A DNA stretch of 50,622 nt from an uncultured Candidatus Saccharimonas sp. (GTDB lineage Bacteria > Patescibacteriota > Saccharimonadia > Saccharimonadales > Saccharimonadaceae), in contig CAZNQY010000001.1 of assembly GCA_964575635.1 (NCBI GenBank), positions 1 to 50,622 on the forward strand, given 5' to 3'. The first letter of the stretch is position 1. Each line of letters starts with the position of its first letter. Position numbers and translations under genes: made by a program. Positions 2,099-44,100 of this stretch are shown piece by piece. Below the pieces are notes generated by a model, which had not been told where the DNA came from, did not search any database, and saw only the letters and a list, made by a program, of their open reading frames with translations.

Positions 2099-2294
2099 GG
2101 AGAGAACATGGTGTCGCTTCGATTCTCCATTCGTTTGCAAAAAATGTAATTATAGAACAGGATATCGGCCTTCGGCCTTCTCCGTTCATTCACAAAAAAA
2201 TGTAAACACTTTTTCGTTTCATTCACTACACCGAACCCGCAGTTATTTTCGTCTTTGACGAAAAACCGCAGGTTCGAATTCTGTAATCGCAGAC
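2099..2294 (-). repeat. tRNA-linked repeat locus A: tRNA 3'-end fragment (2099-2108), partial module (2112-2150), full T-loop-position module (2155-2242), small hairpin (2246-2265), inverted copy of the tRNA-Ser(GGA) T-arm (2266-2294)
   Basis: Direct comparison with copies at 15.8-16.2, 25.8-26.0, 26.4-26.5 and 30.1-30.2 kb. 2266-2284 'ccgcaggttcgaattctgt' matches the reverse complement of the tRNA T-arm at 19 of 20 positions. Confidence 0.7.
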
Positions 2295-2330
2295 AAATAA
2301 AATAACGACCAAAAGGTCGTAATTTTATTT
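2295..2330 (-). terminator. Conserved hairpin immediately 3' of tRNA-Ser(GGA) (family AAATWAAAAWACGACC-loop-GGTCGTWWTTTWATTT)
   Basis: 'aaataaaataacgacc aaaa ggtcgtaattttattt'. Homologous hairpins are at 15762-15799, 26003-26038, 26197-26235 and 30235-30270. Confidence 0.6.
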
Positions 2331-2419
2331 GGCGGAGAGAACAGGATTCGAACCTGCGGTAACATTGCTGCCACACACGCTTTCCAAGCGTGCGCCTTCA
2401 ACCACTCGGCCATCTCTCC
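2330..2419 (-). tRNA. tRNA-Ser(GGA), type II with long variable arm, CCA encoded
   Basis: Reverse complement reads GGAGAGA-TG-GCC..GGC-CACGC-TTGGAAA-GCGTG-(variable arm)-GCAGG-TTCGAAT-CCTGT-TCTCTCC-G-CCA. Anticodon loop is ttGGAaa. Confidence 0.9.
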
Positions 2420-2592: not shown

Positions 2593-2752
2593 GGATATGG
2601 ATCCATTATAACATCCAAGTAAACAACGATGATGAATATCTTATGTTCTTTCTTTCCGTAAAGAACCAAAGACGTACTACTTTTTGAGCCGCAAAAAGTA
2701 GTCAAAAACTCTTGGGGCGGCTTCGAATACGCAGCTTAAAGCCATTCAATAT

Positions 2753-3059
2753 TCTCTTTGGTGTCTGCGTAACTCGACTTCGTCTCAAACATACTCGACA
2801 CGCAACGAGTATATTAAATGTCTTTATCTGGTATTCTGCAGATGCCCCAAACCCCCTAGACTGACTTGCATATAGATATTCGAGATTTAATAGTACTACC
2901 GAAACATAAAATAACTGTTTATCTAACGTCCACGCATAGGGTACCTGCGACCCCGGGTCTGGGTAATCTGCAAGAATCCGGTATTAAAAACTGAAGCGAA
3001 TTCCTGGTGAGTCGAGTATGTTTGAGCGGCGCGAGTTACGCAGGCTCCAAAGAATGAGA
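2753..3059. repeat. Nested long-range inverted repeats in a ~780-bp non-coding block (candidate structured RNA or decayed element)
   Basis: Outer arms 2753-2799 and 3011-3059 share blocks gtcgagtatgtttgag and cgagttacgcag. Inner arms are 2828-2843 and 2966-2981. No credible ORF. Confidence 0.45.
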
Positions 3060-3196
3060 TTTAGTTTTTAGACCGCGATTCTGAAGCCTACCCAGTGATT
3101 TTGTTTCTTTTGTCATCAAAAGAAAGACATAAGTTGTCATTTTAACTCCACCGCATAAGTTGCGAAAATAGAGCGGAAACACCATAATAAACCACG

Positions 3197-12511: not shown

Positions 12512-12604
12512 GGAGGGGTACCCAAGTGGCTGAAGGGGACGGTTTGCTAAATCGTTAGTTCGGAGAGATCTGAAGCGGGAGTTCGAATCTCCCCTCCTCC
12601 GCCA
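12512..12604 (+). tRNA. tRNA-Ser(GCU), type II, CCA encoded; attachment site of the adjacent element
   Basis: GGAGGGG-TA-CCC..GGG-ACGGT-TTGCTAA-ATCGT-(variable arm)-GGGAG-TTCGAAT-CTCCC-CTCCTCC-G-CCA. Confidence 0.9.
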
Positions 12605-14205
12605 AGAGAAACAGTGGAGTTATTTGACACCAAAACAAGAGACCTAAACGGCTCTCGCAAGGTGTAAGACTCCACTTTTTCTTTTCCAAAATACAATTTC
12701 GAAAAGATTTCCCTAATAATACGTTCCTTTTGAAAAATACGCCCATTGCGAAATGCTGGCAGTGTTTTTTCGATAATCGAATTAAACTCTTCTGGCGTTA
12801 GTGGTTTATGCTTTACAGTTTGAACTCTAAGCTTATTATTATTTTCGTTGATTTTGTTTGTAACAATGTTGATTTCATTGAGATTATCAGAGATGTCGTC
12901 ATTGGCTTTTTTAATAGCTCTATCGTCTGTTAGTTTACCTAAAGAAGCTCTAATCTCATCATTTTTACCGTCCAAGTGACTAATAATACTTTTAAACCGT
13001 TCTATTTCGCTTCTGAGGCGTTGTCTTTCGCCAGACGATAACTCCTTCGTTTCTTTCAAGTATGCCTCGTATGCGTCTTCTGTGAGCATAGAAATGACAC
13101 TTTCTATGGCTGGCTCTATGGCTTTAATGACGTCTCTCATTCTTGGATTTGCAGGATTTGAACGAGAACATATTTTATTCTTACAACTTAGATAGATTGT
13201 TGGTCTTGTGCCGTTTTTTCTGTGCTTCTTTATATTGGGAATATTTGGCAACATTGCCGTATCCTCTCGCCCGCATATTGCACAGTAAATCAAATCTTGT
13301 AAGGGTCTTCGCTCTCGATTATCTTTTGTCTTGGCTCTGTTGCTGTGCTCTGATAGCAACGACACTGCGCCAAAAGTAGCCTCATCTATTATTGGTATAA
13401 ATCCCAATCCTAATTCTCTAAGGTCTGTTTTTTGATTAGCTTGTGTTAGAACGCCCATATAAAAGGAGTCTGCGAACATCTTGCCTAGTGTGCTGACCGT
13501 TACTTTCATAATGCGGTAATTGCCATCTTCGGTGTAATACTTCGAATAATGATTATCGTTAAGGTATTTGGCAATTTTAGATAACATATCGCCATTTGCC
13601 CTCATTCCCCACGCTCGTTTTATCAAGCCAAAGTTATCATTGTAATCATCTGGCGTATAAATACCCTGTTTTTGAATATAACCGTGTTTTGGGACTCCAC
13701 CAGATAGACCTTCTTTAACTCTTTTTCTAACACCTCGTTTAACCTTATCTGACAAGTCGTCTGAATAGTGTTTCGCAAACACGAACAACATTCCTAACAT
13801 CATCTTGCCATTAGATGAATTGTCGAATTGATGAGAATGAAAACGAAGGTCTTTCATCTGACCCTTATCAAGCATATCTATAATCTTGCCAGCTTCGACC
13901 ATATTACGTGCCAAGCGGTCAGGGTGCCACGCTATAATGCCGTCTATTTTGCCGTCTTTAACTTCTTTCAGCAACGCCTTAAATAAAGGGCGATTATTAG
14001 CGGTTTTGGCTGATTTTTCTTCTCTGACCTCGCCAATAACCTTTAATTTGAGTTTTAGTGCTAGCTTACGGCAATCGTCTATCTGGTCATTTATAGACCG
14101 TATTTGTCTCCCAGATTCTTCTGACGATTTACGAGCATAAATCTTATACCTGTAAGTTTTAATTAGCTCTTCAAAGGGTGCTTCTTCGTATATGTCGTTA
14201 TTCAT
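12547..14205 (-). CDS. Large serine recombinase (integrase); the last ~16 codons read through the antisense of the tRNA
   Basis: Resolvase-type catalytic domain 'YARKSSEESGRQ...DRLAR', recombinase domain, Cys-rich zinc-ribbon region (CAICGR...CKNKIC) and a coiled-coil tail. The ORF crosses the att core at 12597-12605. Confidence 0.9.
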   Translation of the reverse strand: MNNDIYEEAPFEELIKTYRYKIYARKSSEESGRQIRSINDQIDDCRKLALKLKLKVIGEVREEKSAKTANNRPLFKALLKEVKDGKIDGIIAWHPDRLARNMVEAGKIIDMLDKGQMKDLRFHSHQFDNSSNGKMMLGMLFVFAKHYSDDLSDKVKRGVRKRVKEGLSGGVPKHGYIQKQGIYTPDDYNDNFGLIKRAWGMRANGDMLSKIAKYLNDNHYSKYYTEDGNYRIMKVTVSTLGKMFADSFYMGVLTQANQKTDLRELGLGFIPIIDEATFGAVSLLSEHSNRAKTKDNRERRPLQDLIYCAICGREDTAMLPNIPNIKKHRKNGTRPTIYLSCKNKICSRSNPANPRMRDVIKAIEPAIESVISMLTEDAYEAYLKETKELSSGERQRLRSEIERFKSIISHLDGKNDEIRASLGKLTDDRAIKKANDDISDNLNEINIVTNKINENNNKLRVQTVKHKPLTPEEFNSIIEKTLPAFRNGRIFQKERIIREIFSKLYFGKEKVESYTLREPFRSLVLVSNNSTVSLGGGGEIRTPASDLSELTI

Positions 14206-14310
14206 TGTTTTTCGAACTTTGATAAAAATTACTTATATAAATATCTATGTAAATGATTATATGCTAGTTTTTCGAATTATAACAAATCAAGGTTCTGTTA
14301 TATAATTAAG

Positions 14311-14436
14311 GGGTTCTAAGCAATTCACAATAGTAACGCCAGTAATGGTGTGATTTCTCTCGAGAATGAGCACCGTATAAACAACTGGAGAAATCCTGCT
14401 GTGAATGGCTTAGAACACCCTACGGTGCTCTTTTTT
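14311..14436 (+). promoter_or_regulatory. Structured leader or regulatory region in the element's divergent intergenic space
   Basis: Arm 14311-14329 pairs with 14400-14420 (~18-19 bp). A 10-bp stem 14368-14377/14421-14430 is followed by TTTTTT, just before the SD and ATG at 14466. Confidence 0.4.
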
Positions 14437-14465
14437 GTTTGTGCCGTATTTATAAAGGAGATGAT

Positions 14466-14789
14466 ATGGCGCTAAGAACGCAAGACTCAATACAGATTGA
14501 ACAGTTGAAAAGAAATAAAGATGCTCAAGAATTGACGGCGATGGCTCAAATGACAGATGAGCAACGCAATAATTATTTGAGACAAAGAGATGTCGTTAAA
14601 CAATTGCAGAAATGTAATGCCGTGATGGTTGGTTGGTGCTTCTTGTGCACTATCCTTGTCTTTACGTCTTTTGTATTTCCACCGCTACTGATTGCGGTGA
14701 TTTTTATTATCGTAGCTATTGTAAGAACCTATAAAAATAAATACAAACCGCTCAGGATTGAGCAGAAGAAGTTTTACGAGATTAAATAA
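14466..14789 (+). CDS. Small membrane protein of the element (C-terminal TM hairpin)
   Basis: AAGGAG 6 nt upstream of the ATG at 14466; the track ORF from 14439 starts at TTG. Hydrophobic 'VMVGWCFLCTILVFTSFVFPPLLIAVIFIIVAIV'. Confidence 0.55.
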   Translation: MALRTQDSIQIEQLKRNKDAQELTAMAQMTDEQRNNYLRQRDVVKQLQKCNAVMVGWCFLCTILVFTSFVFPPLLIAVIFIIVAIVRTYKNKYKPLRIEQKKFYEIK

Positions 14790-14865
14790 TCTCACGCATT
14801 AAGATGTGTAGATATCAGTCTGCCGAGATGTTATATAAAGCTGGCAGTAAAAGAATAGTAAAATT

Positions 14866-15306
14866 TTAGGTTGTTGGCTGTATTTCTAATGGCGTCAATG
14901 CTTTGGCGAGTTTGATTTGGTCGTCTAGTGATAAGTTGCTAAAGTTATTTGTTGGCAGTGGTTTTAATACAGTCTCCATATTCACTAAGCCTTTTTGCAA
15001 CGACTGAACTATAGCCACCAGTTCTCGTGTGGTCATTTGCTCCATATCTCGTTTCATAAGCTCGCTATAGGCTCTCGATAATAGCATATTTGTGATGTTT
15101 TTATGTTTTGTTATTACGTCTACGCCACTTGTGTCTCGCTCTAATTCCCACGATTTCTGTTTTGTATTTTCAATATCTTTCTGTCTTTCGTTGCATATCT
15201 TAATAATCGTAGGTTTACTAACTCCTGTTGTTTTTGCGATATCATCAAACGAGCAAGCGCCAGCCCTTAATGCCACTACCTCATTTGATAGTTCGAGACT
15301 TACCAT
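14866..15306 (-). CDS. HTH-domain protein of the element (possible regulator or directionality factor)
   Basis: N-terminal 'FDDIAKTTGVSKPTIIKICNE' helix-turn-helix. Starts 10 nt after the upstream ORF stop. Confidence 0.55.
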   Translation of the reverse strand: MVSLELSNEVVALRAGACSFDDIAKTTGVSKPTIIKICNERQKDIENTKQKSWELERDTSGVDVITKHKNITNMLLSRAYSELMKRDMEQMTTRELVAIVQSLQKGLVNMETVLKPLPTNNFSNLSLDDQIKLAKALTPLEIQPTT

Positions 15307-15315
15307 AACTATCTC

Positions 15316-15612
15316 CTATAAGTTAAAGTGTTTGTCTATGGCTTTTTTTACCATAGCTTCTACTCGTTTTTCGGCTCCTGCCGTATCGTTGTTATCCTCT
15401 ATTATAGTATATTTCGAAGAACTCGTCCTTAGTGTAATAGTTGTTCGTGTAATGGTATCGAAATCAAGAGTCACCTCTGTGCCATCATCAAGCGTAAAGG
15501 TGCTCGTGTCTTGTGATTCAGATGGTATATCGCTTATAGCGTCAATCAAGCCAGTCAAGTCTTTTACGACCTTGCCAGACAACTCCGTAAGCTCCTTTTT
15601 GTTATAACTCAT
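15316..15612 (-). CDS. Small acidic hypothetical protein of the element
   Basis: 98-aa ORF. Its start overlaps the stop of the reconstructed circular-form recombinase reading frame. Confidence 0.5.
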   Translation of the reverse strand: MSYNKKELTELSGKVVKDLTGLIDAISDIPSESQDTSTFTLDDGTEVTLDFDTITRTTITLRTSSSKYTIIEDNNDTAGAEKRVEAMVKKAIDKHFNL

Positions 15613-15761
15613 ACCTACATTTTATATCAAAGGTTTCTTTATGACTAAAAAGGCTATCTAATATGTTCCCAAATCTACGAATACCAGATATGACCTCATC
15701 TAGTGGTGTATGGTCGTTTTCGTTCAATAGAGTTTCGAAAATAGTATCTACTGCTCCGCCA

Positions 15762-15799
15762 AAATAAAACAACGACCCTTGTGGTCGTTATTTTATTTT
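15762..15799 (+). terminator. Conserved post-tRNA hairpin, displaced ~3.1 kb from tRNA-Ser(GCU) by the element
   Basis: 'aaataaaacaacgaccc ttg tggtcgttattttatttt', the same family as 2295-2330, 26003-26038, 26197-26235 and 30235-30270. Confidence 0.6.
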
Positions 15800-16192
15800 A
15801 CCAGAGTCGGGTCATTCAAACTCCCGCGGTTTTGCCCACGGCAAAACGAGCGCGGAGTTCGGCGCTGTGCAGCGAAATGAAAATGTGTTTACATATTTTC
15901 ATAAGCAAACAAAGGAGCGAGATTTATCGAGCGATATCTCCCCTATTTTGCAAGGCAAAATCAGCGGGAGTTCGGTGTAGCGAACGAAACAAAAGAAAGC
16001 GCGAAGCATTTTCTTTTGTAAGTAAGCGGAAGAGCCCAAAGGGCGATATCTCCGCTAATCCAAAGGCAAAACGAGCGCCGAGCAGCGAAGAAGCGAGATT
16101 TATCGAGCAATATCTCCCCTCATTTCCAAGAAAACACGAAACATTTTCTACTTAAGTAAGCGAACGGAAAAACCCAAAGAGTGATATCTCCC
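15800..16192 (+). repeat. tRNA-linked repeat locus E: inverted tRNA-Ser(GCU) T-arm copy (15800-15827) followed by four tandem modules (15852-15944, 15964-16056, 16066-16121 partial, 16131-16192 partial)
   Basis: Units begin '(gc)gggagttcgg' and end 'gatatctcccc', which are the two halves of the Ser(GCU) T-arm. The cores match those at the other four tRNA loci. Confidence 0.7.
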
Positions 16193-16210
16193 CCATTTAA
16201 TTGTTCAACT

Positions 16211-16241
16211 AAAAATAAAACAAGCCCGCAAAAGCGGGCTT
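16211..16241 (-). terminator. Terminator of the 16245-16844 gene
   Basis: Stem aagcccgc/gcgggctt, followed by a T-run on the minus strand. Confidence 0.65.
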
Positions 16242-16244
16242 TAA

Positions 16245-16844
16245 CTACTGCAAAATTTCCTTAAAAATCTCAAACAGCTTACTTGAAAGGTCGTCGATAT
16301 AGGAAGCCTTTTTAACAACTGGTGGCGCCAATGAAGATAATAAAATAACTTCATTATTATATACTGGCTTCAGATAAATAGACTTGTTTACTAAATCACG
16401 TACCCTATCCAAGTATGTAAAATTTGGCGATACGTGTAGGTTACCATCCGCCGTACTAACGAGAAAAGAACGTTTAAAATACGATGCTCGTCTGATCGAC
16501 ATATTGGCATATTCTTTTAATGCATCGCTGTCAATCATCAGTTCGCTTTCATCGCACATTTGTACGAAAAGGTCCCTGTCAAACACTTCGGTTGTATATG
16601 ATTTACTTTTTTTCCCGATAGAAACTAACCATTTTTTGTTGATAACCAAAAAAGACTCATAAACAGAATAGCCTACTCTCGTGCGATGCCAATCAGAATC
16701 ATTGCTAATTTCAGCCCTCGCTTCATCGTTGCCAAGGCTAATCTCCTCGCCAAGTTGCTTCAAGGATTCGTACAGCTCGGTAATAACTGTTCCGCCATCA
16801 ATCCCAACAGAGTTAGTTGAACCTTCAACGTTCAATATCAACAC
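16245..16844 (-). CDS. Hypothetical protein
   Basis: 199-aa ORF with its own terminator; no family recognised. Confidence 0.55.
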   Translation of the reverse strand: MLILNVEGSTNSVGIDGGTVITELYESLKQLGEEISLGNDEARAEISNDSDWHRTRVGYSVYESFLVINKKWLVSIGKKSKSYTTEVFDRDLFVQMCDESELMIDSDALKEYANMSIRRASYFKRSFLVSTADGNLHVSPNFTYLDRVRDLVNKSIYLKPVYNNEVILLSSLAPPVVKKASYIDDLSSKLFEIFKEILQ

Positions 16845-25633: not shown

Positions 25634-25774
25634 TGTTTAATTTAAGCATAATAGTGTTTATGTTTCGAGGTTTTTGGATTATATATAGGAGTTAAGTCGG
25701 AGAGTGTTACGATTCTTTCTCATTTATGCAATTACCAAAAGTGATTTTCATCAAAAACGCTATTGTGGGCTTTA

Positions 25775-26196
25775 GGAGAGAAAGGGATTCGGTCACGTTC
25801 AGCGAACCCGGACTTCGACAATTAAGTGTATGTTTTTGTCAGAAATTTCACAGCAGAATAAAAGAAAGAAAGGGATATCGCCTTCGGCTCTTCCGCTCAT
25901 ACGTAAAAATATGTAGACACATTTTTTCTTAATTCGCTTCACCGAACCCTTGATTGCGCTAATAAATTAGCGCTCAAGGGTTAGAATCCCTTTCGAACAG
26001 TCAAATTAAAAAACGACCAGATGGTCGTCTTTTAATTTGGCGGAGAGAAAGGGATTCGGTCACAGATAATTTGCTCTGCAAATTTCCGCGACCCCGTCTC
26101 AACTTACTGCAAGCATAGCTTGCAATCAGTTTCCGACCTTGAGAACTGCCACAGGCAGTTCTCACCCTACCGGGTTCGAATCCATTTCTCGAAGAT
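25775..26196 (-). repeat. tRNA-linked repeat locus B downstream of tRNA-Ser(CGA): two displaced T-loop-to-3'-end fragments (25775-25796, 26038-26063), T-loop-position module (25869-25951), inverted T-arm copies (25975-26002, 26168-26196), hairpin (26003-26038), X-family segment (26064-26167)
   Basis: 'ggagagaaagggattcggtcac' occurs twice and matches the tRNA 3' end from the T-loop onward. The other pieces align to loci A, C, D and E. Confidence 0.7.
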
Positions 26197-26235
26197 AAAT
26201 TAAAATAACGACCACACGGGTCGTAATTTTAATTT
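26197..26235 (-). terminator. Conserved post-tRNA hairpin 3' of tRNA-Ser(CGA)
   Basis: 'aaattaaaataacgacc acac gggtcgtaattttaattt'. Confidence 0.6.
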
Positions 26236-26322
26236 GGCGGAGAGAAAGGGATTCGAACCCTTGATGGGTTGCCCCATACCGCTTTTCGAGAGCGGCCAGT
26301 TCAACCACTCCTGCATCTCTCC
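26235..26322 (-). tRNA. tRNA-Ser(CGA), type II, CCA encoded
   Basis: Reverse complement reads GGAGAGA-TG-CAGG..CTGG-CCGCT-CTCGAAA-AGCGG-(variable arm)-AAGGG-TTCGAAT-CCCTT-TCTCTCC-G-CCA. Confidence 0.88.
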
Positions 26323-26404
26323 AGATATTAGATATTTTAACAGATGGATTGTAAATTAAATAGGCGGTAGTGAAAATCCTCATCATCTATTTTAATAATG
26401 GATT

Positions 26405-26569
26405 CCGACAGGATATCGCCTACGGCTCTTCCGTTTGCTTGAAAAAAATGTTTCGCTGGACAGCGAACACTTTTTTCTTCGCATCGCTACACCGAATCTT
26501 ACGGTTCGGATTCGCTACGCGAATCTACCATAGAAAAAAGACCAGTTTTCACTGGTCTTTTTTCTATGG
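26405..26569 (-). repeat. tRNA-linked repeat locus C downstream of tRNA-Arg: module (26405-26498), inverted 3'-half copy (26498-26530), 20-bp-stem hairpin (26528-26569)
   Basis: Module flank 'ccgacaggatatc' matches the tRNA-Arg 'ccgacaggattcgaa'. The core aligns with the other copies and carries an extra internal hairpin. Confidence 0.65.
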
Positions 26570-26643
26570 TACACCCGACAGGATTCGAACCTATGACCTT
26601 CGGCTCCGCAAGCCGACGCTCTATCCATCTGAGCTACGGGTGC
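26567..26643 (-). tRNA. tRNA-Arg(GCG), CCA encoded
   Basis: Reverse complement reads GCACCCG-TA-GCTC..GAGC-G-TCGGC-TTGCGGA-GCCGA-AGGTC-ATAGG-TTCGAAT-CCTGT-CGGGTGT-A-CCA, with a G1-U72 wobble. Confidence 0.85.
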
Positions 26644-26777
26644 AAAATCAGGGATTATTTGCGACGAATCGCGCATAACCGCCTGTTTCATGTAACTAGA
26701 AGGTGCCTTCATGCAATAAATTGCAGAACAAATGACATTGTATCATAAAAAATAATCTGATGGTAGGTGAATTTCGA

Positions 26778-30094: not shown

Positions 30095-30103
30095 CAGCAT
30101 AGT

Positions 30104-30235
30104 GCGAGATATCGCTGCGCTCCTTCGCTCACTTATGAAAAAATGTAAACACTTTTTCATTCCGTTCGCTGCGCCGAAATCGCGGTTGCGTTGATTTCAT
30201 CAAAACCCGCGAGCTCGGACCTTGCCCTCTTGGCA
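30104..30235 (-). repeat. tRNA-linked repeat locus D downstream of tRNA-Ser(UGA): module (30104-30185), small hairpin (30191-30203), inverted 3'-half copy (30206-30235)
   Basis: Flanks 'gcgagatatc' and 'ccgaaatcgcg' mirror the Ser(UGA) T-stem 'cgcgag/ctcgc'. 30206-30235 is ~80% identical to the reverse complement of the tRNA 3' 30 nt. Confidence 0.7.
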
Positions 30236-30270
30236 AATTAAAAAATGACCAAAAGGTCATTTTTTAATTT
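30235..30270 (-). terminator. Conserved post-tRNA hairpin 3' of tRNA-Ser(UGA)
   Basis: 'aaattaaaaaatgacc aaaa ggtcattttttaattt'. Confidence 0.6.
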
Positions 30271-30359
30271 GGCGGAGAGGGCGAGATTCGAACTCGCGGT
30301 GCCTTTTACAGCACGACGGTTTTCAAGACCGTTACCATAAACCGCTCGGCCACCTCTCC
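30270..30359 (-). tRNA. tRNA-Ser(UGA), type II, CCA encoded
   Basis: Reverse complement reads GGAGAGG-TG-GCCG...-ACGGT-CTTGAAA-ACCGT-(variable arm)-GCGAG-TTCGAAT-CTCGC-CCTCTCC-G-CCA. Confidence 0.88.
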
Positions 30360-33070: not shown

Positions 33071-33445
33071 CTATTTGATCACACCAACTACGAAATTCGC
33101 AATTGCGAAAGCCGACATCGCTACAACCATACCGACAACTGAATAAATAATTATATTTTTCGCCTTTGTTATTTTTGAGCTGTCGCCAGCCGATGTAGTA
33201 TAAACCATGCCGCCATAAATCATCATAACAACAGATACGATGCCTAAGACAAACAACAAAGTATTTACAAGGTTTTTAATTATTCCAGACGCATTACTGC
33301 CGTCATCATTACATAACTTATTACTACTGTCAGAAGAACAAGAAGGGAATAGATCAAGGGCGCTAACGTTCGTAGATGGTATTAAAACCAATCCCAATCC
33401 CATAACCAAAGCAATAGAAACGATAATATTTTTAATTTTACTCAT
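33071..33445 (-). CDS. VirB2/TrbC-like T4SS pilin paralogue 3
   Basis: Same architecture: 'LLFVLGIVSVVMMIYGGMVYTTSAGDSSKITKAKNIIIYSVVGMVVAM'. Its start overlaps the upstream stop (TAATG). Confidence 0.7.
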   Translation of the reverse strand: MSKIKNIIVSIALVMGLGLVLIPSTNVSALDLFPSCSSDSSNKLCNDDGSNASGIIKNLVNTLLFVLGIVSVVMMIYGGMVYTTSAGDSSKITKAKNIIIYSVVGMVVAMSAFAIANFVVGVIK

Positions 33446-34113
33446 TAGAATCTCCCTAATACAAAATTTGTTATAACGAACGCCACAGAAACAATAATAA
33501 GGCCAGCGACAGCATATAATATAGCCATCTTTGCTTTTGCAATCTCGCCGACATCACCTCTTGATATAGCATACATAAAGCCTGCTGTAATTATTGCTAT
33601 AACTGCAATGATACCCGCCGCAAAATAAACGAGACTTAGTGTATTCGCCAAAGCAGTATTGGCATCAATATCCGGAATACTTTCATTAACACCCAAACCA
33701 AGCCCATTAATTATTAAACCAACAACAGCGATCGCCATCAATGCAATAACTAACCCAATAACAGCGTTAAGTATAGCGTTTTTGCCCTTTTTCATACCAT
33801 CCGATGATCCACGACTCAATAAATATTGAAAACCACCATAGATAATGTAAAAAGCGGATAAATACGCAACCGCCGTAATTGCGATCTGTAATATATTCAA
33901 CGCAATTCGCCAAACAAAGTTACTCATCGCTTTTCCGTCCGAACTATTCGGAACATCAATCGTACAATCACTATTAGTTACACCATCATACCAAGCAGGG
34001 AAGCCCAAAAAGCCACTATTACAGCTTGCGTAGGTGTCAGTAGGAATAGCAACAGCCATCAAAGATCCGCCTGCAAAGATGGCCAACATTATCGCTTGAA
34101 AATATTTCTTCAT
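33445..34113 (-). CDS. Tandem (fused) double VirB2/TrbC-like pilin, paralogue 2
   Basis: Two consecutive TM-hairpin units: 'YIIYGGFQYLLSRGSSDGMKKGKNAILNAVIGLVIAL' and 'GFMYAISRGDVGEIAKAKMAILYAVAGLIIV'. Confidence 0.7.
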   Translation of the reverse strand: MKKYFQAIMLAIFAGGSLMAVAIPTDTYASCNSGFLGFPAWYDGVTNSDCTIDVPNSSDGKAMSNFVWRIALNILQIAITAVAYLSAFYIIYGGFQYLLSRGSSDGMKKGKNAILNAVIGLVIALMAIAVVGLIINGLGLGVNESIPDIDANTALANTLSLVYFAAGIIAVIAIITAGFMYAISRGDVGEIAKAKMAILYAVAGLIIVSVAFVITNFVLGRF

Positions 34114-34115
34114 TA

Positions 34116-34652
34116 CTAAAACAATCCTCCTGGTATTACATAATTCAAGAATGAATACATAAATGCATACGCAACCAATCCAATGATCACATTCTGTATA
34201 ATTTTGATCGCTTGTTTTGTTTGATCCATTGATCCGCCAGCAGTAGTATACAAAATACTTCCATAAATCACGCCACCAACCGCTAGTAGTCCAATCCCAG
34301 CTGTCATTATATTAATAACCTGAGTTAATAACGACCAAACACAAGAATCTTCTATATCGCCACTACCGTTTGAATCACATTTAATAACAGATGTAACAAT
34401 ACCGTCTACACAGGTTTGGCCATCTTGAAGATTTACGTCGTCGCATGGATCTTTTTCGCTTGATGAAGAGTTTTTGTTTTCATCATTACTACCTGCGTTT
34501 TCTCTATCCACAGTTTCATCAGTTGTTACTGGAGTTGGATCTGCTATTATGACTCTCTTTGAGCTAGTTTCTGCAAAAACTGCTGTAGGCGCACAAAACA
34601 CACCCAAAAGCATGCCCGCTATAATAACCATTGTATTTATTTTATTCTTCAT
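34116..34652 (-). CDS. VirB2/TrbC-like T4SS pilin paralogue 1 with a longer Cys-rich acidic ectodomain
   Basis: The ATG at 34652 (MKNKINTMVIIAGMLL...) gives a signal peptide. C-terminal 'GGVIYGSILYTTAGGSMDQTKQAIKIIQNVIIGLVAYAF'. Confidence 0.65.
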   Translation of the reverse strand: MKNKINTMVIIAGMLLGVFCAPTAVFAETSSKRVIIADPTPVTTDETVDRENAGSNDENKNSSSSEKDPCDDVNLQDGQTCVDGIVTSVIKCDSNGSGDIEDSCVWSLLTQVINIMTAGIGLLAVGGVIYGSILYTTAGGSMDQTKQAIKIIQNVIIGLVAYAFMYSFLNYVIPGGLF

Positions 34653-34796
34653 ATATATCCATAAGATACAATAAAACTGTTGATTTAACAATATATAAAA
34701 CCAAAAAGGTATTGCTTTTTTTCAAAAATAGTGTATTATATAAATAACATAAAAAGACAGACCACGTAACCATATAAGCATACAAGGAAAGTTATA

Positions 34797-35822
34797 ATGT
34801 CAAAACACGACAATCTTGAACAAATTACACTAATTGATAAGAAGAACTCGAAAGAGAAAAAGAATTCAAATAAATTAAATAATGCGGTTATTACTGGTAT
34901 CGTAGCAGTCTCTTTATTTATGACAGGATGCGACAATGGTGAAGCTAGCGCTACTCAACCAGAGATAACACCTCCACCAACCGAATCTTCGGAAATGGTA
35001 AATAATACAAATTCATCCGAAGCAGAACAAGCTGAAGTTAATCCGATCATCATGAAAGAACTTGGCCCAAAAACCGAGATGAATATCACTACCGAATTTT
35101 CAAATGGCGAAACTGTTGATTATTCAAAAGCGCCAGTAAATCTTGTAGAAAGTTATAATTTTGAATATTTAACAGCAGAGCAACAAGCTAAACTCAAAGA
35201 ATACGAAGCAATGGAACTTTCGGAATTCCGCAAACTCTCTAATGAAGAGCAGTCGGTATTCTCGAGCTGGGTACTTAAAAATAACCAACCAAGGTTTGAA
35301 AAAATGTTGTCGGCGTATGGAATTGACAAACAATATTCATATTATGTTAACAAACATAGTGAAATTGTCGAAAACTTTGAATACATTAATATATTTCTAG
35401 CTAGCCTATATATTCAGGACCCTGAAAGTAAAACAGGTAGCTTAAAGTATGATGCCGATACTGCATATAAACTCGAGACAATACATCAAACACCAAGTAT
35501 CGACGAAAATGTTTATAGCACAACTACAAGATATGATGAAAAAATAGATTTTTTCAAGGACTATATTGGTTTAAATATATCTGATTTTGAAACCGAGATA
35601 TTAAAAACTGGTAATATGGAAATAAGAGAACCTGGACATACCTACGCAGGCATAATAGCAAACTTGAAATTTATTGGATCAAAATCTATTACGTTTTCTA
35701 AACCAGATCAACAAGTAATCTTTCAAATAACACCAATTACAGCGATAGACGGTCAAAAAATAGAGCTTACGCAACTTGGATCAATTAATGATATGGAACA
35801 CGCTGCAGAATTTGGAAATTAA
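34797..35822 (+). CDS. Lipoprotein of unknown function, first gene of the plus-strand T4SS side
   Basis: Lipobox-like 'LFMTGC' after a TM segment. Has its own terminator at 35843-35867. Confidence 0.6.
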   Translation: MSKHDNLEQITLIDKKNSKEKKNSNKLNNAVITGIVAVSLFMTGCDNGEASATQPEITPPPTESSEMVNNTNSSEAEQAEVNPIIMKELGPKTEMNITTEFSNGETVDYSKAPVNLVESYNFEYLTAEQQAKLKEYEAMELSEFRKLSNEEQSVFSSWVLKNNQPRFEKMLSAYGIDKQYSYYVNKHSEIVENFEYINIFLASLYIQDPESKTGSLKYDADTAYKLETIHQTPSIDENVYSTTTRYDEKIDFFKDYIGLNISDFETEILKTGNMEIREPGHTYAGIIANLKFIGSKSITFSKPDQQVIFQITPITAIDGQKIELTQLGSINDMEHAAEFGN

Positions 35823-35842
35823 AATAATCTTTTATATAAAAA

Positions 35843-35867
35843 GCACCCTGCAATAAGGGTGTTTTTT
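35843..35867 (+). terminator. Terminator after the lipoprotein gene
   Basis: Stem caccct/agggtg followed by TTTTTT. Confidence 0.6.
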
Positions 35868-35886
35868 ATGTTATATTTATTACATA

Positions 35887-38025
35887 ATGTTTAAGCTATT
35901 TCGTAATAAATATATTACAAACATAATACTGTTTGTTTTTGTCGCAAGTTTTTTTTGTTCTTTATTTGTCGTAAAAACCGCCAATGCATGCTCTTACAGT
36001 CAAAAAGACAATACGTACATTAGTTGTACGGACGCAGAAAAAAAAGAATATGAAGCAAAAGGGGAAGTAGCGGCAGCGCAGCAAACATTAGACCAAGCAA
36101 ACCCACCCGAAAAAAGTGACTGTATGCCAAAGGGAATTGGTTGGATATTGTGCCCTGTAATGAATTTTACTGCTGAAATCGTTGACGGAGCATATAGTGC
36201 TATTAGTAGGATGCTAACCACTCCAGCGCTTGGAACAAATACTGACTCATCTAATGGTATGTATACTACCTGGTCGGTTATGCGAACGCTTGCTAATATT
36301 ATTTTTGTTATTGCGTTTATAATTATAATTTTTTCTCAAATCACAAGTGTAGGTATTAATAATTACGGGATCAAAAAATTACTACCCAAATTAATAATAG
36401 CCGCAATTCTAGTAAATATATCTTATTTTATTTGTGCTATTGCCGTAGACATATCTAATATTTTAGGTATTGGGTTTAAGGGAATTTTTGATAGCGTGTT
36501 AGATAAAGTAAACAGCGGTAAGATGATGAGTACAGAAGATATAACATCTCTAATTCTTGCAAATAACACCGAGAAAATGGCCATATTAACTGGCGTCACA
36601 GCCGGAGTTGCTTTATCAGGAACAGAGTTTCTTGCCGCCCTTTCATTATTAGTTCCTGGATTAATTGCAGCTTTTCTTGCAATAGCAACAGTATTTATTG
36701 TATTGACATTGCGACAGGCATTGATTGTATTGTTGGTAGTGGTTTCGCCGATCGCTTTTGTATTATACTTATTACCAAACACTGAAAACTGGTTCAAAAA
36801 ATGGCGAGACATGTTTACGACAATGTTAATGATGTTTCCGATTATTGCTGGTATATTTGGAGCTTCACAACTTGCGGCATATACGATTGTAAATAGTAGT
36901 AACTATTTCATGGTTCAATTAATGGGCGTATTGATTCAATTTATTCCTCTTGCGATTACACCATTAGTAATGAAATCCGCAGGTGGAGTGTTGAATAAGG
37001 TTGGTGGATTTGTTAATAATCCAAACCGTGGACCTTTCGACAGAATGAAAAAGAGTGCAAAAAGCTACTATGATCGCGCTGATCTACGTTCAAATAACCG
37101 CGCTATGAATTTAGGAGAAAAACCAAATGCTGGACAGCTATTACGATATGGCATGAGACGAGGGTTATTAAAAAGAGATGCATATAATAATGTGGTCGAT
37201 GAAAATTTAAAGAAAGAATACGGCCGATCAGCAACAGATTTTGTTACTGATTCTATAGAAAAAAATAAACAACGCACAAGCCAACAATTAATGTCTTATG
37301 TCACGGGCAATAAAATAGGTATTCGTGACGAAATGACAAAAGGGGCAGGTGCTGGGGCTGGAGATAGGGCATATGCATCAGCTCTCGGTACACAAGGCAA
37401 GATATGGGATGACAACGTAAAAACAGCTGGTGCAATGTTTTCAAGAGAAGGTTATAGCGGCCAAGAATTACATGCAATTGCTACTGGCGGCACCCTTAGA
37501 GAAAATAAAGAAGCGAGCGGAGAACAAGTTGAAGCATCAGTCGCCGATGGAGTCCAGTCTAATTATTATCCAAATATTCACGGTATGCTTGATTACGCTA
37601 CAAAAATACAGGATCCAGAAAAGCGCGCATCATACCAAAAAACTCTTATATCTAAGCTTGCCACAAGCCCAAATAAGCCAAAATATCTATCGGGCCAAGA
37701 TATTGACGAGCTAAAGCAAGGCACATTCAAAAATACTATCGATGACATGATAGTTAATACAATTGGAAAAAATAAATTATCTCAAGAATCATTTAAATCG
37801 ATGAGCCCTGAAGAAATGGCTCAATTCACCAATGTGTTGACAGAAAATAAAGATGGAAAACTTAATGTATTAAATAAGCAATTAAATGACTTCCAAAGTA
37901 CAATCATTGCAGCTATAAATAACCCTAGGTTGAATTTTAGTCCTGCTGAAATAGAAGCTATGAATAAAATGGCAAACGCCGCAAGGTTACAAGGATCCGC
38001 TCATAGTAGTGGACAATTCGAATAA
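35887..38025 (+). CDS. VirB6/TrbL-like polytopic T4SS membrane protein with a long hydrophilic C-terminal domain
   Basis: 712 aa: N-terminal TM, Cys-containing loop, at least 6 TM segments between aa ~130 and 380, then a ~330-aa soluble tail. Confidence 0.65.
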   Translation: MFKLFRNKYITNIILFVFVASFFCSLFVVKTANACSYSQKDNTYISCTDAEKKEYEAKGEVAAAQQTLDQANPPEKSDCMPKGIGWILCPVMNFTAEIVDGAYSAISRMLTTPALGTNTDSSNGMYTTWSVMRTLANIIFVIAFIIIIFSQITSVGINNYGIKKLLPKLIIAAILVNISYFICAIAVDISNILGIGFKGIFDSVLDKVNSGKMMSTEDITSLILANNTEKMAILTGVTAGVALSGTEFLAALSLLVPGLIAAFLAIATVFIVLTLRQALIVLLVVVSPIAFVLYLLPNTENWFKKWRDMFTTMLMMFPIIAGIFGASQLAAYTIVNSSNYFMVQLMGVLIQFIPLAITPLVMKSAGGVLNKVGGFVNNPNRGPFDRMKKSAKSYYDRADLRSNNRAMNLGEKPNAGQLLRYGMRRGLLKRDAYNNVVDENLKKEYGRSATDFVTDSIEKNKQRTSQQLMSYVTGNKIGIRDEMTKGAGAGAGDRAYASALGTQGKIWDDNVKTAGAMFSREGYSGQELHAIATGGTLRENKEASGEQVEASVADGVQSNYYPNIHGMLDYATKIQDPEKRASYQKTLISKLATSPNKPKYLSGQDIDELKQGTFKNTIDDMIVNTIGKNKLSQESFKSMSPEEMAQFTNVLTENKDGKLNVLNKQLNDFQSTIIAAINNPRLNFSPAEIEAMNKMANAARLQGSAHSSGQFE

Positions 38026-38094
38026 AAAGATGCAAGTAATCAATATTGCTCATAAAAAACAGGCATTTAACAACATTTTGCTATAATATAACCA

Positions 38095-39000
38095 ATGGCA
38101 GTTTATAAAGTACCTCAGGATGTGGAAGCTGACGATAAGTTGATCGGTCCGTTTAACTTTCGCCAATTTATATATCTGTTAATAGTCTCGGCATCATTTG
38201 GAATAGCGTGGTTATTCTTTAATATATTGCCCATTATGGCAGTAATTCCTTTGCCTGTGATTTTGTTTTTTGGGGCGCTTGCGTTGCCGCTTCGTAAAGA
38301 CCAGCCAATGGAAATTTATATGGCAGCCTTAGTATCATTTTATTTGAAACCAAGGCGTCGTATCTGGGAACCAGACGGACTAGATAATTTGATCGAAATC
38401 ATCGCCCCAAAAATTGTCGAAGTTCAACGAACAAAGAATTTATCAGTCAATGAAGCTGAGCGCAGACTTAGTTACTTGGCAGAGATTGTCGATAGCCGTG
38501 GTTGGGCAGTACGAAGCCCAGGTGGCGTTCAATTACCGAATAGTGCAATGAACAGCGATGTTTATTTTGAAGCTCAACAAGTCGATGACGTACTTGATAA
38601 TGACAGTGCTATGGTACGTCAAATATCAAACAAATTAGCCGAAAGTGATAATAAACGTCACCAAGACGCAATAAATATAATGCAAAACAAAGCGCCTGCC
38701 GCGCCGATACCAATTCCAATTCCTATACCAAAACCACTTTCTGCCGAAGAACGAATCAAACTTGAGTATAATCCTTATCCAAGTGAAATCCATCAAACGG
38801 TTGTTCAGCCTTTATTTAACAATCAAGCGCCAGTCGAACAGATAAAACCTGAACCAAACACTAGTAAAGACACTGTTTCTGCTGATATAATGAATCTTGC
38901 AAATAATACTAGCTTGTCAATTGAAACAATCGCACACGAAGCAGAGCGTATCAAGAAAAGGCAAGAAGCTAGCGAAGAAGTGGTGATTTCTTTGCGCTAA
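38095..39000 (+). CDS. PrgI-family (VirB3-like) T4SS membrane protein with a Pro-rich linker
   Basis: Opening 'YKVPQDVEADDKLIGPFNFRQFIYL' followed by a TM pair; 'PIPIPIPIPKP' linker. Confidence 0.7.
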   Translation: MAVYKVPQDVEADDKLIGPFNFRQFIYLLIVSASFGIAWLFFNILPIMAVIPLPVILFFGALALPLRKDQPMEIYMAALVSFYLKPRRRIWEPDGLDNLIEIIAPKIVEVQRTKNLSVNEAERRLSYLAEIVDSRGWAVRSPGGVQLPNSAMNSDVYFEAQQVDDVLDNDSAMVRQISNKLAESDNKRHQDAINIMQNKAPAAPIPIPIPIPKPLSAEERIKLEYNPYPSEIHQTVVQPLFNNQAPVEQIKPEPNTSKDTVSADIMNLANNTSLSIETIAHEAERIKKRQEASEEVVISLR

Positions 39001-39041
39001 AATGAATAATAAAAGAGGACGAGAGTGGGGAATAGGCAATT

Positions 39042-39848
39042 ATGCCACCAATTAATCAAATTCAAAATCCAGGTCAACCAGTTCCAGCGCCAAATGGAGC
39101 TCCCTTAGCGCAGTCTCAAAAACCACGTAATCCAAACTCGACACAGAACACGTTATTATTATCAGAACTTCGTGACAATATGGTTATTATGGCTGACGGA
39201 TCATTTAGAGCCGTTGTTGCCTGTAAATCAATCAACTTTGATTTGATGAGTAGCCGTGAACGTGAAGGTGTTGAATATAGTTATCAAAACTTCTTGAATG
39301 CATTAAACCATCCAGTTCAAATTTTGATCAGGTCACAACGAATTGATATTGGCCCATATATTGATAAACTTGTTCAAATCCGTCGCAATCAAGACAATAT
39401 GTTATTAAACGTATTAATGGATGATTATATTAACTTTATCGATATTCTATCTCAAGAAGCAAACATTATGGACAAATCATTCTTTATTGTTGTACCTTAT
39501 TATCCGCAGGGAGATTTGAATAATCTTATTGAACAAGGAAAAGGTTTCTTTGGAAAGATCGTTTCAAAACCAAAAAACGCCGTGACAAAAATTGATTCAT
39601 TTACTTACGAAAAAGCCAAAACTGAAGTTAAAAACAGAGTTGATGGTGTTATTGCTGGACTATTTCAAATGGGAATTCAAAGTATTCAATTAAATACAAA
39701 AGAGTTGGGCGAGTTATATTATAACTTTTATAATCCAGACACCGCAGTTCGTGAACCATTAGGTAATTTCGAAGACGTTACTTCGATTTATGTTAAAAAA
39801 GGTACAAACAACCAACAACCCCCAGCTATGAATGGAGGAATAAAATAA
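39042..39848 (+). CDS. T4SS-associated protein, translationally coupled to VirB4; resembles the non-ATPase N-terminal region of monoderm VirB4 proteins
   Basis: 'MADGSFRAVVACKSINFDLMSSREREGVEYSYQNFLNALNHPVQILIRSQRID'. No Walker motifs. TAATG overlap with the next gene. Confidence 0.5.
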   Translation: MPPINQIQNPGQPVPAPNGAPLAQSQKPRNPNSTQNTLLLSELRDNMVIMADGSFRAVVACKSINFDLMSSREREGVEYSYQNFLNALNHPVQILIRSQRIDIGPYIDKLVQIRRNQDNMLLNVLMDDYINFIDILSQEANIMDKSFFIVVPYYPQGDLNNLIEQGKGFFGKIVSKPKNAVTKIDSFTYEKAKTEVKNRVDGVIAGLFQMGIQSIQLNTKELGELYYNFYNPDTAVREPLGNFEDVTSIYVKKGTNNQQPPAMNGGIK

Positions 39849-41692: not shown

Positions 41693-41702
41693 GTAATTAA
41701 TT

Positions 41703-44099: not shown

Positions 44100-44100
44100 T

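Follow-up and report, generated by a model that had tools for sequence, protein, structure and literature searches.

Behind all five tRNA genes of the 50,622-nt stretch of Candidatus Saccharimonas DNA analysed here (the window), and at about 115 loci outside it, a conserved module that we call module A interrupts a downstream partial tRNA repeat at T-loop positions 57/59. On balance, this module is probably the conserved, hairpin-structured cis core of tiny non-autonomous elements, specific to Saccharibacteria, that occupy tRNA T-loops and move or recombine there. The junctions lie at set positions, the tRNA end is duplicated, the orientation is nearly uniform, and copies form arrays, occur in cargo-bearing versions, are polymorphic between tRNA genes of the same type and share a covarying core fold. 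The elements are best read as non-autonomous, T-loop-specific integrative or insertion elements, the flanks being target duplications. The module A family is previously undescribed.

The window holds nine copies, six of them full and three partial; every one of its five tRNA genes is followed by a set on its own strand, that of tRNA-Ser(GCU) lying beyond a 3.1-kb insert. The nine copies reported in a first-pass annotation of this DNA were borne out in position. A covariance model trained on 16 copies and then run over the window recognised six of them as full modules (every E <= 6e-9), while the other three (2112-2150, 16066-16121 and 16131-16192) are 3' halves ending in GAT(A/C)(T/C)C plus the T-stem 3' strand. 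Module motif searches of the window gave 9 matches versus 3.35 expected and 4 versus 0.29, above all shuffles. The layout described earlier, in which a 5' T-stem strand and TTCGG open the unit and GATATC and a 3' T-stem strand close it, is correct. The window features are as follows.

2112..2150, minus strand: degenerate 3'-half remnant of an older module, then catgttctctcc, which resembles a tRNA 3' end.
2156..2241, minus strand: module A unit behind tRNA-Ser(GGA) (covariance model 83.1 bits; fold), in the order 5' T-stem-like strand, TTCGG, structured core, GATATC, 3' T-stem strand (cctgttct).
2243..2265, minus strand: small variable hairpin (P2) behind tRNA-Ser(GGA), assigned from sequence; its position recurs in other genomes.
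2266..2294, minus strand: diverged inverted (antisense) copy of the T-arm and 3' half of tRNA-Ser(GGA), 85% complementary; with the tRNA 3' half it makes a 46-nt inverted repeat around the terminator.
2295..2329, minus strand: bidirectional terminator hairpin immediately 3' of the tRNA-Ser(GGA) CCA.
2330..2419, minus strand: complete tRNA-Ser(GGA), CCA encoded (ARAGORN; Rfam tRNA 60.9 bits).
12512..12604, plus strand: tRNA-Ser(GCU) (ARAGORN).
15754..15799, plus strand: repeat of the final 8 nt of tRNA-Ser(GCU) (CTCCGCCA) with its terminator, parted from the tRNA by the 3.1-kb serine-recombinase insert.
15800..15851, plus strand: inverted T-arm copy (attcaaactcccgcgg), P2 hairpin (ttttgcc cac ggcaaaa) and linker (cgagc) to the unit.
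15852..15943, plus strand: module A unit, array member 1 (covariance model 85.8 bits).
15965..16055, plus strand: module A unit, array member 2, with another P3 subtype (covariance model 67.9 bits).
16066..16192, plus strand: two partial modules (16066-16121, 16131-16192), each with an (A/G)ATATC-TCCCC end.
25775..25860, minus strand: type B module remnant with a GTGAC end, then the repeated tRNA 3' part CGAATCCCTTTCTCTCC.
25869..25952, minus strand: module A unit behind tRNA-Ser(CGA), the copy within the originally noted interval (85.0 bits; fold).
25956..26037, minus strand: second terminator, inverted T-arm copy (aaagggattctaacccttga) and P2 hairpin behind tRNA-Ser(CGA).
26038..26234, minus strand: first unit behind tRNA-Ser(CGA), of type B and not A, comprising terminator, inverted T-arm copy, a module of ~105 nt (GGTGAGAACTGCC...GTGAC) and the tRNA 3' end again, whose repeat begins at T-loop position 56 (CGAATCCCTTTCTCTCCGCCA).
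26235..26322, minus strand: tRNA-Ser(CGA) (ARAGORN).
26407..26502, minus strand: module A unit behind tRNA-Arg(GCG) (covariance model 48.4 bits); the 3' flank cctgtcgg matches tRNA-Arg, the 5' flank (taaga) does not.
26503..26566, minus strand: terminator with 21-nt perfect arms and degenerate inverted T-arm region behind tRNA-Arg(GCG).
26567..26643, minus strand: tRNA-Arg(GCG) (ARAGORN).
30103..30184, minus strand: module A unit behind tRNA-Ser(UGA) (covariance model 86.1 bits).
30185..30269, minus strand: terminator, diverged inverted T-arm copy and P2 hairpin behind tRNA-Ser(UGA).
30270..30359, minus strand: tRNA-Ser(UGA) (ARAGORN).

An occupied locus runs from an intact tRNA gene with CCA through a terminator, a decaying inverted T-arm copy and a small hairpin to a loosely tRNA-like 5' T-stem strand with TTCG and the module. 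The module is followed, from T-loop position 59 onward, by the two final loop bases, the 3' strand of the T-stem and the acceptor strand, to which CCA and another terminator are often attached. The tRNA end behind the module would be a displaced, attR-like copy, that is, a target duplication, and the 3' flank would co-vary with the neighbouring tRNA for this reason. The earlier claim that both flanks match the local tRNA held for the 3' flank, whose T-stem strand is that of the local tRNA in 61 of 84 non-redundant units (acceptor strand 7/7 identical in 32/84), but hardly for the 5' strand, which is identical in 18/84 and agrees on average at 3.8/5 positions, compared with 2.7/5 for random pairs. 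Pairing between the flanking strands reaches only 3.7/5 positions in these 84 units (real tRNAs 5.0/5, random partners 3.1/5). With a 5' strand only loosely tRNA-like and such poor pairing, a maintained T-arm mimic was rejected; the stem, which had been proposed to mimic a T-arm, is not conserved as a helix.

Both junctions follow the local T-loop. The left one (junctions marked by a slash) normally reads TTCG/G, and TTCA/G where the loop is TTCAAAT (L059); the right one normally reads GCGAT/AT-CC, and GCGAT/CT where the loop is TTCGACT (L105). The conserved module ends are TTCGGYGNAGYGAA and GCGATATC; these ends (GYGNAGYGAA... and ...GCGAT) show neither inverted repeats nor duplicated flanking bases, and one T-loop base is absent at the junction. 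Other right-end modules adjoin the repeated 3' end elsewhere in the T-loop: B at GTGAC/CGAATCC, D at GCGC/ATCC and E at CAGTC/TTCAAATCC. No short repeat common to both junctions was found in the junction sequences, so that they reveal no overlap of the classical tyrosine-recombinase kind; a classical tyrosine or serine recombinase signature was rejected, as these sequences hold no fitting shared overlap. Judged by its letters, the junction may resemble IS91-like GTTC targeting and BstBI-like TT^CGAA ends.

Outside the window, about 150 module A copies were collected in about 115 loci, which were sampled by pattern, so that every locus was preselected as module-bearing; the named carrier loci are Saccharibacteria genomes, and the metagenome contigs are of unassigned origin. 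The copies lie behind at least 17 tRNA species, all in GGTTCG...ATCC T-loop contexts, and the module starts 32 to 126 nt past the CCA (median 87 nt). With redundant loci excluded, 107 of 146 profile matches lie behind a tRNA in its orientation and at most 500 nt downstream, and one is inverted; each of the other 38 sits at a contig edge or beyond cargo.

Several observations point to mobility. Between genomes, tRNA genes of the same type carry different module subtypes or none; at Ser-UGA, for instance, the window, L030, L059, L114 and L037 stand against L013, L079, L095, L097 and L119. At the sequence level, module similarity is independent of tRNA identity: the modules of L059 behind Ser-UGA and Arg-GCG are 96% identical, those of L015 (Ser) and L047 (Gln), from different assembled genomes, 93%, and those of L039 (Ser) and L084 (Arg) 94%. 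In the arrays read in this analysis, the partial copies are found on the distal side of a full one (window 2112-2150 and 16066-16192; L102, L119, L030). Cargo of 1-6 kb, with NUDIX, HAD, Abi_C, RDD and hydrolase genes, separates tRNA and module at L206, L169, L185, L157 and L141. The displaced tRNA end differs from the current tRNA at L206 and L009, and the hybrid unit L158 joins a tRNA-Gln to a module followed by a tRNA-Asn 3' end and terminator. New copies may enter at or beside the live tRNA, older ones being pushed outward. Among the three candidates offered at first pass (a miniature element, attL-attR remnants and a functional tRNA-trailer RNA), the direct 3' repeat, arrays, polymorphism, cargo and tRNA-independent similarity favour a mix of the first two.

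The module A core folds into a three-way junction with variable hairpins, and this fold covaries. In an alignment fitted to the model's structure, 90.9% of cells are paired, compared with 69.9% in shuffles, and double changes occur at 20 of 24 core pairs; the covariation score is 0.546 versus 0.204 in shuffles and at most 0.12 in slid controls. At several core pairs C and U vary opposite a fixed G (CG 81, UG 38, unpaired cells 0; AU 59, GU 30, GC 22), a variation that is tolerated on the tRNA-sense strand alone. In 37 of 39 modules the sense strand gives the better fold of the two strands, a bias confounded by purine-rich composition. Folding z-scores are modest (0.7 to -3.3), and a transition-neutral mismatch count in the main hairpin (P3), which in the commonest subtype resembles a bidirectional terminator, gave no excess of G-T over A-C (25 versus 23). 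Indels in two hairpins give module lengths between 68 and 107 nt, and base pairs are conserved, not codons; a coding reading was rejected on these grounds, in agreement with the first-pass annotation. For new copies to enter, the fold would be required in cis, as single-stranded DNA or as RNA structure on the tRNA-sense strand.

Flanks of 2.5 kb at genome loci and 5 kb at metagenome loci were surveyed at about 115 loci. Pfam censuses of the 279 (137 + 142) neighbouring ORFs revealed no recurring integrase, transposase or reverse transcriptase and no recombinase family with at least two members, and no partner enzyme was found among cargo ORFs (Pfam, PHROGs) or window ORFs (Pfam). The sole window recombinase (12547-14205) belongs to the separate insert at the CCA end; the 521-aa cargo protein of L206 is unrelated to it, and two 199-aa ORFs adjoining module regions are mutually unrelated. 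Scans of viral contigs and BLAST against phage records and plasmids gave no true module A match, so that no attP-bearing free form is known, and the related full-length element with a T-loop integrase that had been envisaged was not found in the flanks of these loci or on viral contigs. L176, with a 123-nt terminal repeat, could be either a 1603-bp circle or a repeat-bounded segment. When the window was scanned with Rfam, tRNAs alone passed (gathering score, E-value); at E <= 0.01 nothing appeared over 2000-3200 or 15700-16300, and 25700-26700 gave sub-threshold chance matches only. In agreement with the first-pass impression that no described family has this architecture, Rfam did not match the module and our literature search found no description of it. 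Movement might require an enzyme encoded elsewhere, natural transformation followed by homologous recombination, or both; transformation and recombination of this kind are reportedly what genetic studies of a cultivated member of the Saccharibacteria rely on.

Two versions of the mobile-element reading can be drawn. The whole unit of ~170-250 nt could be a collapsed integrative element whose attP would run module/ATCC-T-stem-acceptor-CCA-terminator, or the 70-100-nt module could be a tiny insertion element without inverted ends and without target duplication. We lean slightly towards the collapsed integrative element. This version does not account for the 5' T-stem-like strand and TTCG left of the module, the insertion version requires empty tRNA-end repeats beforehand, of which L079 is the single case, and the missing T-loop base fits neither in simple form.

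There is also a small chance that the units are a new kind of structure-specific recombination site, akin to integron attC sites or to the single-stranded, folded attP of CTX phage, or, in a variant, that module and tRNA tail form a guide RNA. As single-stranded DNA, the tRNA 3' half, terminator and inverted T-arm copy would form a long hairpin imitating a duplex tRNA gene, a three-way junction formed by the module would mark the crossover point, and an unlinked enzyme would insert units, alone or with small cassettes, into many tRNA T-loops, which would give Saccharibacteria a tRNA-anchored cassette system. The real covariation of the core is the reason for keeping the functional-RNA idea, unlikely as we judge it. 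The module would be a structured tRNA-trailer or small RNA made in tRNA sense through terminator read-through or an unrecognised promoter, its three-way junction being the active part and the tRNA 3' tail serving for pairing or for recognition by tRNA enzymes. The variation tolerated on the sense strand alone, the better folding of that strand, the orientation of 107:1 and the CCA and terminator that end many units would suit such an RNA. However, a terminator stands between tRNA and unit, no sigma-70-like promoter was found for the unit, and the commonest subtype's main hairpin itself looks like a bidirectional terminator. Many copies are truncated, tRNAs of the same type often lack one, the flanks decay (acceptor strand intact in 32/84, T-stem not kept), and the modest z-scores, the absent G-T excess in P3 and the compositional confounding of the sense-strand advantage likewise argue against it.

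It is quite unlikely that the units are a passive by-product, in which template switching would extend the terminator palindrome and copy the tRNA 3' half inverted and then direct, hairpin-templated correction and gene conversion with the tRNA would keep the flanks similar, and the module would derive by decay from an earlier copy of tRNA end, terminator and antisense. Long inverted repeats do centre on terminators and the sense-antisense-sense zigzag is present; the module motif GCGGAGGAG is antisense to the tRNA-Ser(GCU) 3' end, TGGCGGAGGAG lies directly 3' of the terminator in L084 and runs on to ...GCGATATC-TCCCC, and the main module hairpin is terminator-like. Yet invariant ends with subtype-specific compensatory changes over more than 100 loci and at least 17 tRNA species, 90-97% identity between modules of different tRNAs and assembled genomes, cargo-bearing versions and a fixed T-loop junction are not expected from independent replication errors. 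Highly improbable, in our estimate, is a right-end guide-RNA scaffold in the manner of TnpB right-end RNA or IS110 bridge RNA, in which an unlinked nuclease or recombinase would find cognate intact T-loops by means of the ~18 nt of adjoining tRNA 3' end, a form of homing. After a structured element end, apparently on the sense strand, there are indeed 16-20 nt that match the sequence past the insertion site exactly, and then a terminator, and TTCG on the opposite side could serve as adjacent motif. But the neighbour censuses showed no TnpB, IscB, IS110 or other candidate effector near any copy, most copies have a truncated or diverged guide-like tail, and each unit would permanently target the intact tRNA gene beside it. 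A guide-like pairing between the inverted copy and the 5' strand was rejected, complementarity being marginal (9.46 of 12 versus 9.05 in the control).

The favoured mobile elements can be set beside known systems. Integrative elements target the T-loop or 3' end of tRNA genes, and their gene-less derivatives are CIMEs (cis-mobilisable elements); tycheposons are said to leave remnant arrays at tRNA genes. Like tRNA-targeting integrative elements, module loci keep the tRNA intact, have an insert bounded by a direct repeat starting in the T-loop, accrete in tandem, vary in cargo and differ in presence at tRNAs of the same type. Of the attL/attR hallmarks, a direct tRNA 3' repeat with regenerated tRNA is present, and an integrase beside the att site is absent. 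Unlike these elements, module copies have no integrase in or near them, most units measure 170-250 nt, a folded 70-100-nt module sits exactly at T-loop 57/59 with a second weak 5' T-stem copy before it and an inverted T-arm copy after the terminator, and one module family uses at least 17 tRNA species.

A MITE was rejected, as the module ends show no terminal inverted repeats and no target-site duplication. These features are likewise missing from IS200/IS605 derivatives (palindrome-associated transposable elements, PATE) and REP/RAYT, with which the module also shares subterminal hairpins, a single orientation to the target, an apparently strand-specific structure and a constant short left flank, TTCG within GGTTCG. 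It differs from these elements in that no Y1 (HUH) transposase occurred in the neighbour censuses, T-loop contexts and not every TTCG are occupied, one target base is lost and a duplicated tRNA end always accompanies it. Like integron attC sites (60-140 nt), the module has conserved ends and a sequence-variable, structure-conserved middle, and module sites end small gene cassettes in arrays (L141, L157, L185), with a possible single-cassette circle in L176. An attC identity was rejected, since R''/L''-L'/R' boxes, a GTTRRRY core, an IntI-type integrase and attI are lacking at module loci; unlike integrons, the arrays are anchored on tRNA genes and most units are gene-less. As in TnpB omega RNA (reRNA) and IS110 bridge RNA, an RNA-like structured end adjoins target-identical sequence, but those scaffolds are far longer than the module, whose guide-like tail is often decayed; TnpB/IscB omega RNA and IS110 bridge RNA were rejected because no effector lies near modules and the tail is intact in 32/84 units. 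Archaeal non-canonical tRNA introns interrupt the T-loop at about the same position. A T-loop intron was nevertheless rejected, as the interrupted copy has no acceptor 5' strand, D-arm or anticodon arm and a complete uninterrupted tRNA lies upstream; to our knowledge, bacteria lack a tRNA splicing endonuclease.

In practical terms, the partial tRNA copies made by the units can mislead tRNA annotation and cause breaks in assemblies. The module family would offer a handle for finding the responsible enzyme. If the fold is read as structure, it would be a tRNA-anchored counterpart of integron attC sites, and if it is transcribed, the module would be a new RNA class. Little is known of how Saccharibacteria, which are reduced and depend on hosts, exchange genes. 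If mobile, a family that marks the genes of at least 17 tRNA species, carries cassettes (NUDIX, HAD, abortive-infection) and recombines would be a main shaper of these small genomes.

A covariance model built on 16 copies of the module detected six full copies in the window (E <= 6e-9), and motif counts in the window exceeded those of every shuffle. The module seen in the first-pass annotation is therefore real; three further stretches named there are module-derived as well, but proved to be 3'-half remnants rather than full copies. This folded core of about 70-100 nt behind tRNA genes is referred to here as module A, and together with its flanking tRNA-like strands as a unit. ARAGORN and Rfam identified five tRNA genes in the window:

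2330-2419, minus strand, tRNA-Ser-GGA
12512-12604, plus strand, tRNA-Ser-GCU
26235-26322, minus strand, tRNA-Ser-CGA
26567-26643, minus strand, tRNA-Arg-GCG
30270-30359, minus strand, tRNA-Ser-UGA

Read in the tRNA sense, each tRNA region shows the identical order of parts: the entire tRNA with CCA, a bidirectional terminator hairpin, a diverged inverted copy of the T-arm, a small variable hairpin, a short strand resembling the 5' T-stem, TTCGG followed by a 60-95-nt core and GATATC, and finally the T-stem 3' strand. The inverted T-arm copy and the tRNA 3' half form a 36-46-nt inverted repeat centred on the terminator. The terminators at 2295-2329, 15762-15799, 26003-26037, 26198-26234 and 30235-30269 belong to one sequence family, present behind all four tRNA-Ser genes of the window, with the consensus AAwTAAAA..ACGACC nnnn GGTCGT..TTTTAwTT. 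They score as terminators on either strand and resemble the terminator cores behind tRNA-Ser genes of other Saccharibacteria genomes, whether a unit is present or absent.

The GC content of the window, ~38%, is in keeping with Saccharibacteria. The neighbouring genes, including those for GroEL, a Mur ligase, FemAB, ValRS, TsaD and DnaA and a type IV secretion-like cluster, are ordinary chromosomal ones. The intervals 33071-45309 and 48336-49724 hold the secretion-like cluster (a pilin, a PrgI-family protein, a TraG/VirB4-like ATPase, a glucosaminidase and large proteins of unknown kind), followed by dnaA in a stretch of ~30% GC, and the window is therefore near the presumed replication origin. 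At the left edge, hsdM, encoding the methylase subunit of a type I restriction-modification system (483-1994), adjoins the tRNA-Ser(GGA) unit. Upstream of the same tRNA region, two nested long-range inverted repeats of 25 and 22 nt (2755-2808 and 3002-3053; 84-91% complementary) enclose ~190 nt. No Rfam match at E <= 0.01 was found in 2755-3053, which may be a structured RNA missing from the annotation or the end of an element.

Outside the window, scanning one genome per species with an exact pattern returned 119 loci. Thirty-six of these hold true copies, mostly labelled Candidatus Saccharibacteria or Saccharimonadales and in four cases only "bacterium" or "Patescibacteria group", while the remaining loci are chance matches in unrelated, mostly GC-rich genomes. 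A stricter pattern yielded 81 metagenomic loci, 80 of which were analysed, and the sequence profile recovered 53 copies from the genome set and 97 from the metagenome set. Among 146 profile copies outside redundant loci, 107 follow a co-oriented tRNA at a distance of at most 500 nt, and the others are at contig edges or behind cargo (accessory genes between tRNA and module), except for one that is inverted relative to its tRNA. In this sole inverted copy (locus L037, 5456-5538) the TTCGG end reads CCGAA and merges into the right-hand half of the T-loop palindrome. CCA and module start are separated by 32-126 nt (median 87). The tRNAs involved are four isoacceptors each for Ser and Arg and two for Gln, further Tyr, Asp, Met, Ala, Asn, Val and Lys, and Gly and Thr once each. 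The module family is widespread in one phylum and, as far as these tools show, undescribed; covariance scans matched no Rfam family, in line with the earlier impression, and full-text literature searching found no published description.

The claim that the flanks co-vary with the neighbouring tRNA holds strongly for one side only. Across 84 non-redundant units, the T-stem 3' strand is identical to that of the local tRNA in 61 and the acceptor strand is wholly identical in 32, whereas the 5' strand is identical in just 18 (mean 3.8/5, compared to 2.7/5 for random pairs). Strong co-variation thus belongs to the 3' side and has the look of a duplicated target. The flanking strands pair with each other at 3.7/5, compared to 5.0/5 in real tRNAs and 3.1/5 with random partners, and complementarity of the inverted copy to the 5' strand barely exceeds the control. 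The 5' strand and the inverted copy both look like sequence in decay. The unit is not a maintained T-arm mimic.

Loop variants of the host tRNAs pin the junctions of module A. Its left flank corresponds to T-loop bases 1-4, usually TTCG and, with a tRNA loop of TTCAAAT, TTCA; its right flank opens with the last two loop bases, usually AT and, with a loop of TTCGACT, CT. One T-loop base is absent at the junction. Other module types join the repeated tRNA tail (a downstream partial copy of the tRNA 3' end) elsewhere: type B at GTGAC|CGAATCC, i.e. T-loop position 55/56, type D at GCGC|ATCC and type E at CAGTC|TTCAAATCC. Type B occurs on both sides of tRNAs:

26038-26234 and 25775-25860, minus strand, type B units on the 3' side of tRNA-Ser(CGA)
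2430-2592, minus strand, type B on the 5' side, with an exact 26-nt copy of the tRNA-Ser(GGA) 5' end followed by the module

On the 5' side, type B interrupts a duplicate of the tRNA's 5' part at position 25/26. At 2430-2592 the ~95-nt module (TGAGAAyTGCC.GTGGCArTTC...GGGGTCGC...GTGAC) is separated from the real tRNA by a hairpin resembling an anticodon arm and then a promoter-like stretch; at a tRNA-Lys of another genome the split falls at the same tRNA position (L057). Such 5' duplicates were present at 7 of 79 tRNAs examined.

RNAalifold predicted a three-way junction for the commonest module subtype. It consists of a UCG:CGA helix continuing from the T-stem position, a G-C/Y-G pair, a GY...RC helix that contains tandem G.A pairs and opens into a long hairpin, and a second variable hairpin ahead of GCGATATC. 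When 120 distinct copies were aligned to the covariance model, a fitted alignment that favours the structure, 90.9% of cells were paired compared to 69.9% in shuffles, the covariation score was 0.546 compared to 0.204 in shuffles and at most 0.12 with partners slid, and 20 of 24 pairs showed double changes (in one pair CG 70, UA 35, UG 10 and unpaired 5). Despite this bias of the alignment, one architecture is retained by four module subtypes whose hairpin sequences are unrelated. At several positions C or U stands opposite a fixed G with zero unpaired cells, which points to folding on the tRNA-sense strand, as RNA or single-stranded DNA. This conclusion is weakened by an unbiased count of main-hairpin mismatches (25 G-T versus 23 A-C), purine-rich composition and modest folding z-scores.

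Several features suggest mobility or recombination. Same-type tRNAs carry differing module subtypes or none, and a module is usually most similar to one at a different tRNA type, in many cases within its own genome (L059, 96%; L009/L032 and L089/L106, ~90%) but also in separate assembled genomes (93-97%). Partial remnant copies are distal to a full copy in the arrays that were read. In five loci (L206, L169, L185, L157 and L141), 1-6 kb of accessory genes separate tRNA and module, and the units come after a degenerate tRNA tail and terminator. In L206, the left part of type B starts the 3.1-kb cargo region and module A closes it; the displaced tail derives from another tRNA-Ser allele, and the whole T-arm was therefore replaced. 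In L141 (491-2613), L157 (2186-3140) and L185 (1214-7447) the arrangement is cassette-like, units alternating with single accessory genes or small groups of them; examples are three units spaced 0.8-1.2 kb from one another, two units flanking an RDD-family gene, and two units with 6 kb of small unknown genes and an alpha/beta hydrolase between them. In L158, the module behind tRNA-Gln is joined to the tail and terminator of a tRNA-Asn, a block that also bounds the L176 contig, as expected if modules recombine with each other. The metagenome contig L176 (Ga0169931_10196716, 1-1726) has a 123-nt terminal direct repeat of module A, tRNA-Asn-like 3' end and terminator, which flanks ORFs for a NUDIX hydrolase, a product of 127 aa and a small membrane-like protein. 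The contig represents either a circle of 1603 bp or a piece of chromosome with a unit at each end.

Neither an integrase, of the T-loop-targeting kind envisaged in the first-pass annotation or any other, nor a transposase, HUH enzyme or reverse transcriptase recurred among 279 neighbouring ORFs or in cargo, and no module copies were found on viral contigs, phage records or plasmids. The only recombinase of the window is part of a separate insert:

12605-15753, 3.1-kb insert separating the CCA of tRNA-Ser(GCU) from the tRNA's terminator and flanked by the 8-nt repeat CTCCGCCA
12547-14205, minus strand, 552-aa large serine recombinase whose 3' end runs into the tRNA

The insert also contains small ORFs, one encoding an HTH protein, and is a separate small integrative element using the extreme 3' end of the tRNA.

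The data are best read as a family of tiny, non-autonomous, T-loop-specific elements, in which the repeated tRNA tail would be the target duplication and the module a conserved cis-acting end. One version takes the whole unit for a collapsed integrative element, the other takes the module alone for a minute insertion element; in both, movement would require homologous recombination or a factor encoded elsewhere. The family works like a tRNA-targeting integrative element but differs in that no integrase could be assigned to it. When membership was tested, the module did not qualify as a MITE, an integron attC site, a known guide RNA or a tRNA intron.

A functional trailer RNA, a guide-RNA system and passive palindrome extension are all weaker readings of the units. 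No promoter-like site was found ahead of the units, and the main hairpin of the commonest subtype is terminator-like. We consider it unlikely that these T-loop-specific elements represent a structure-specific or RNA-guided system; if they did, the family would be of much higher interest.
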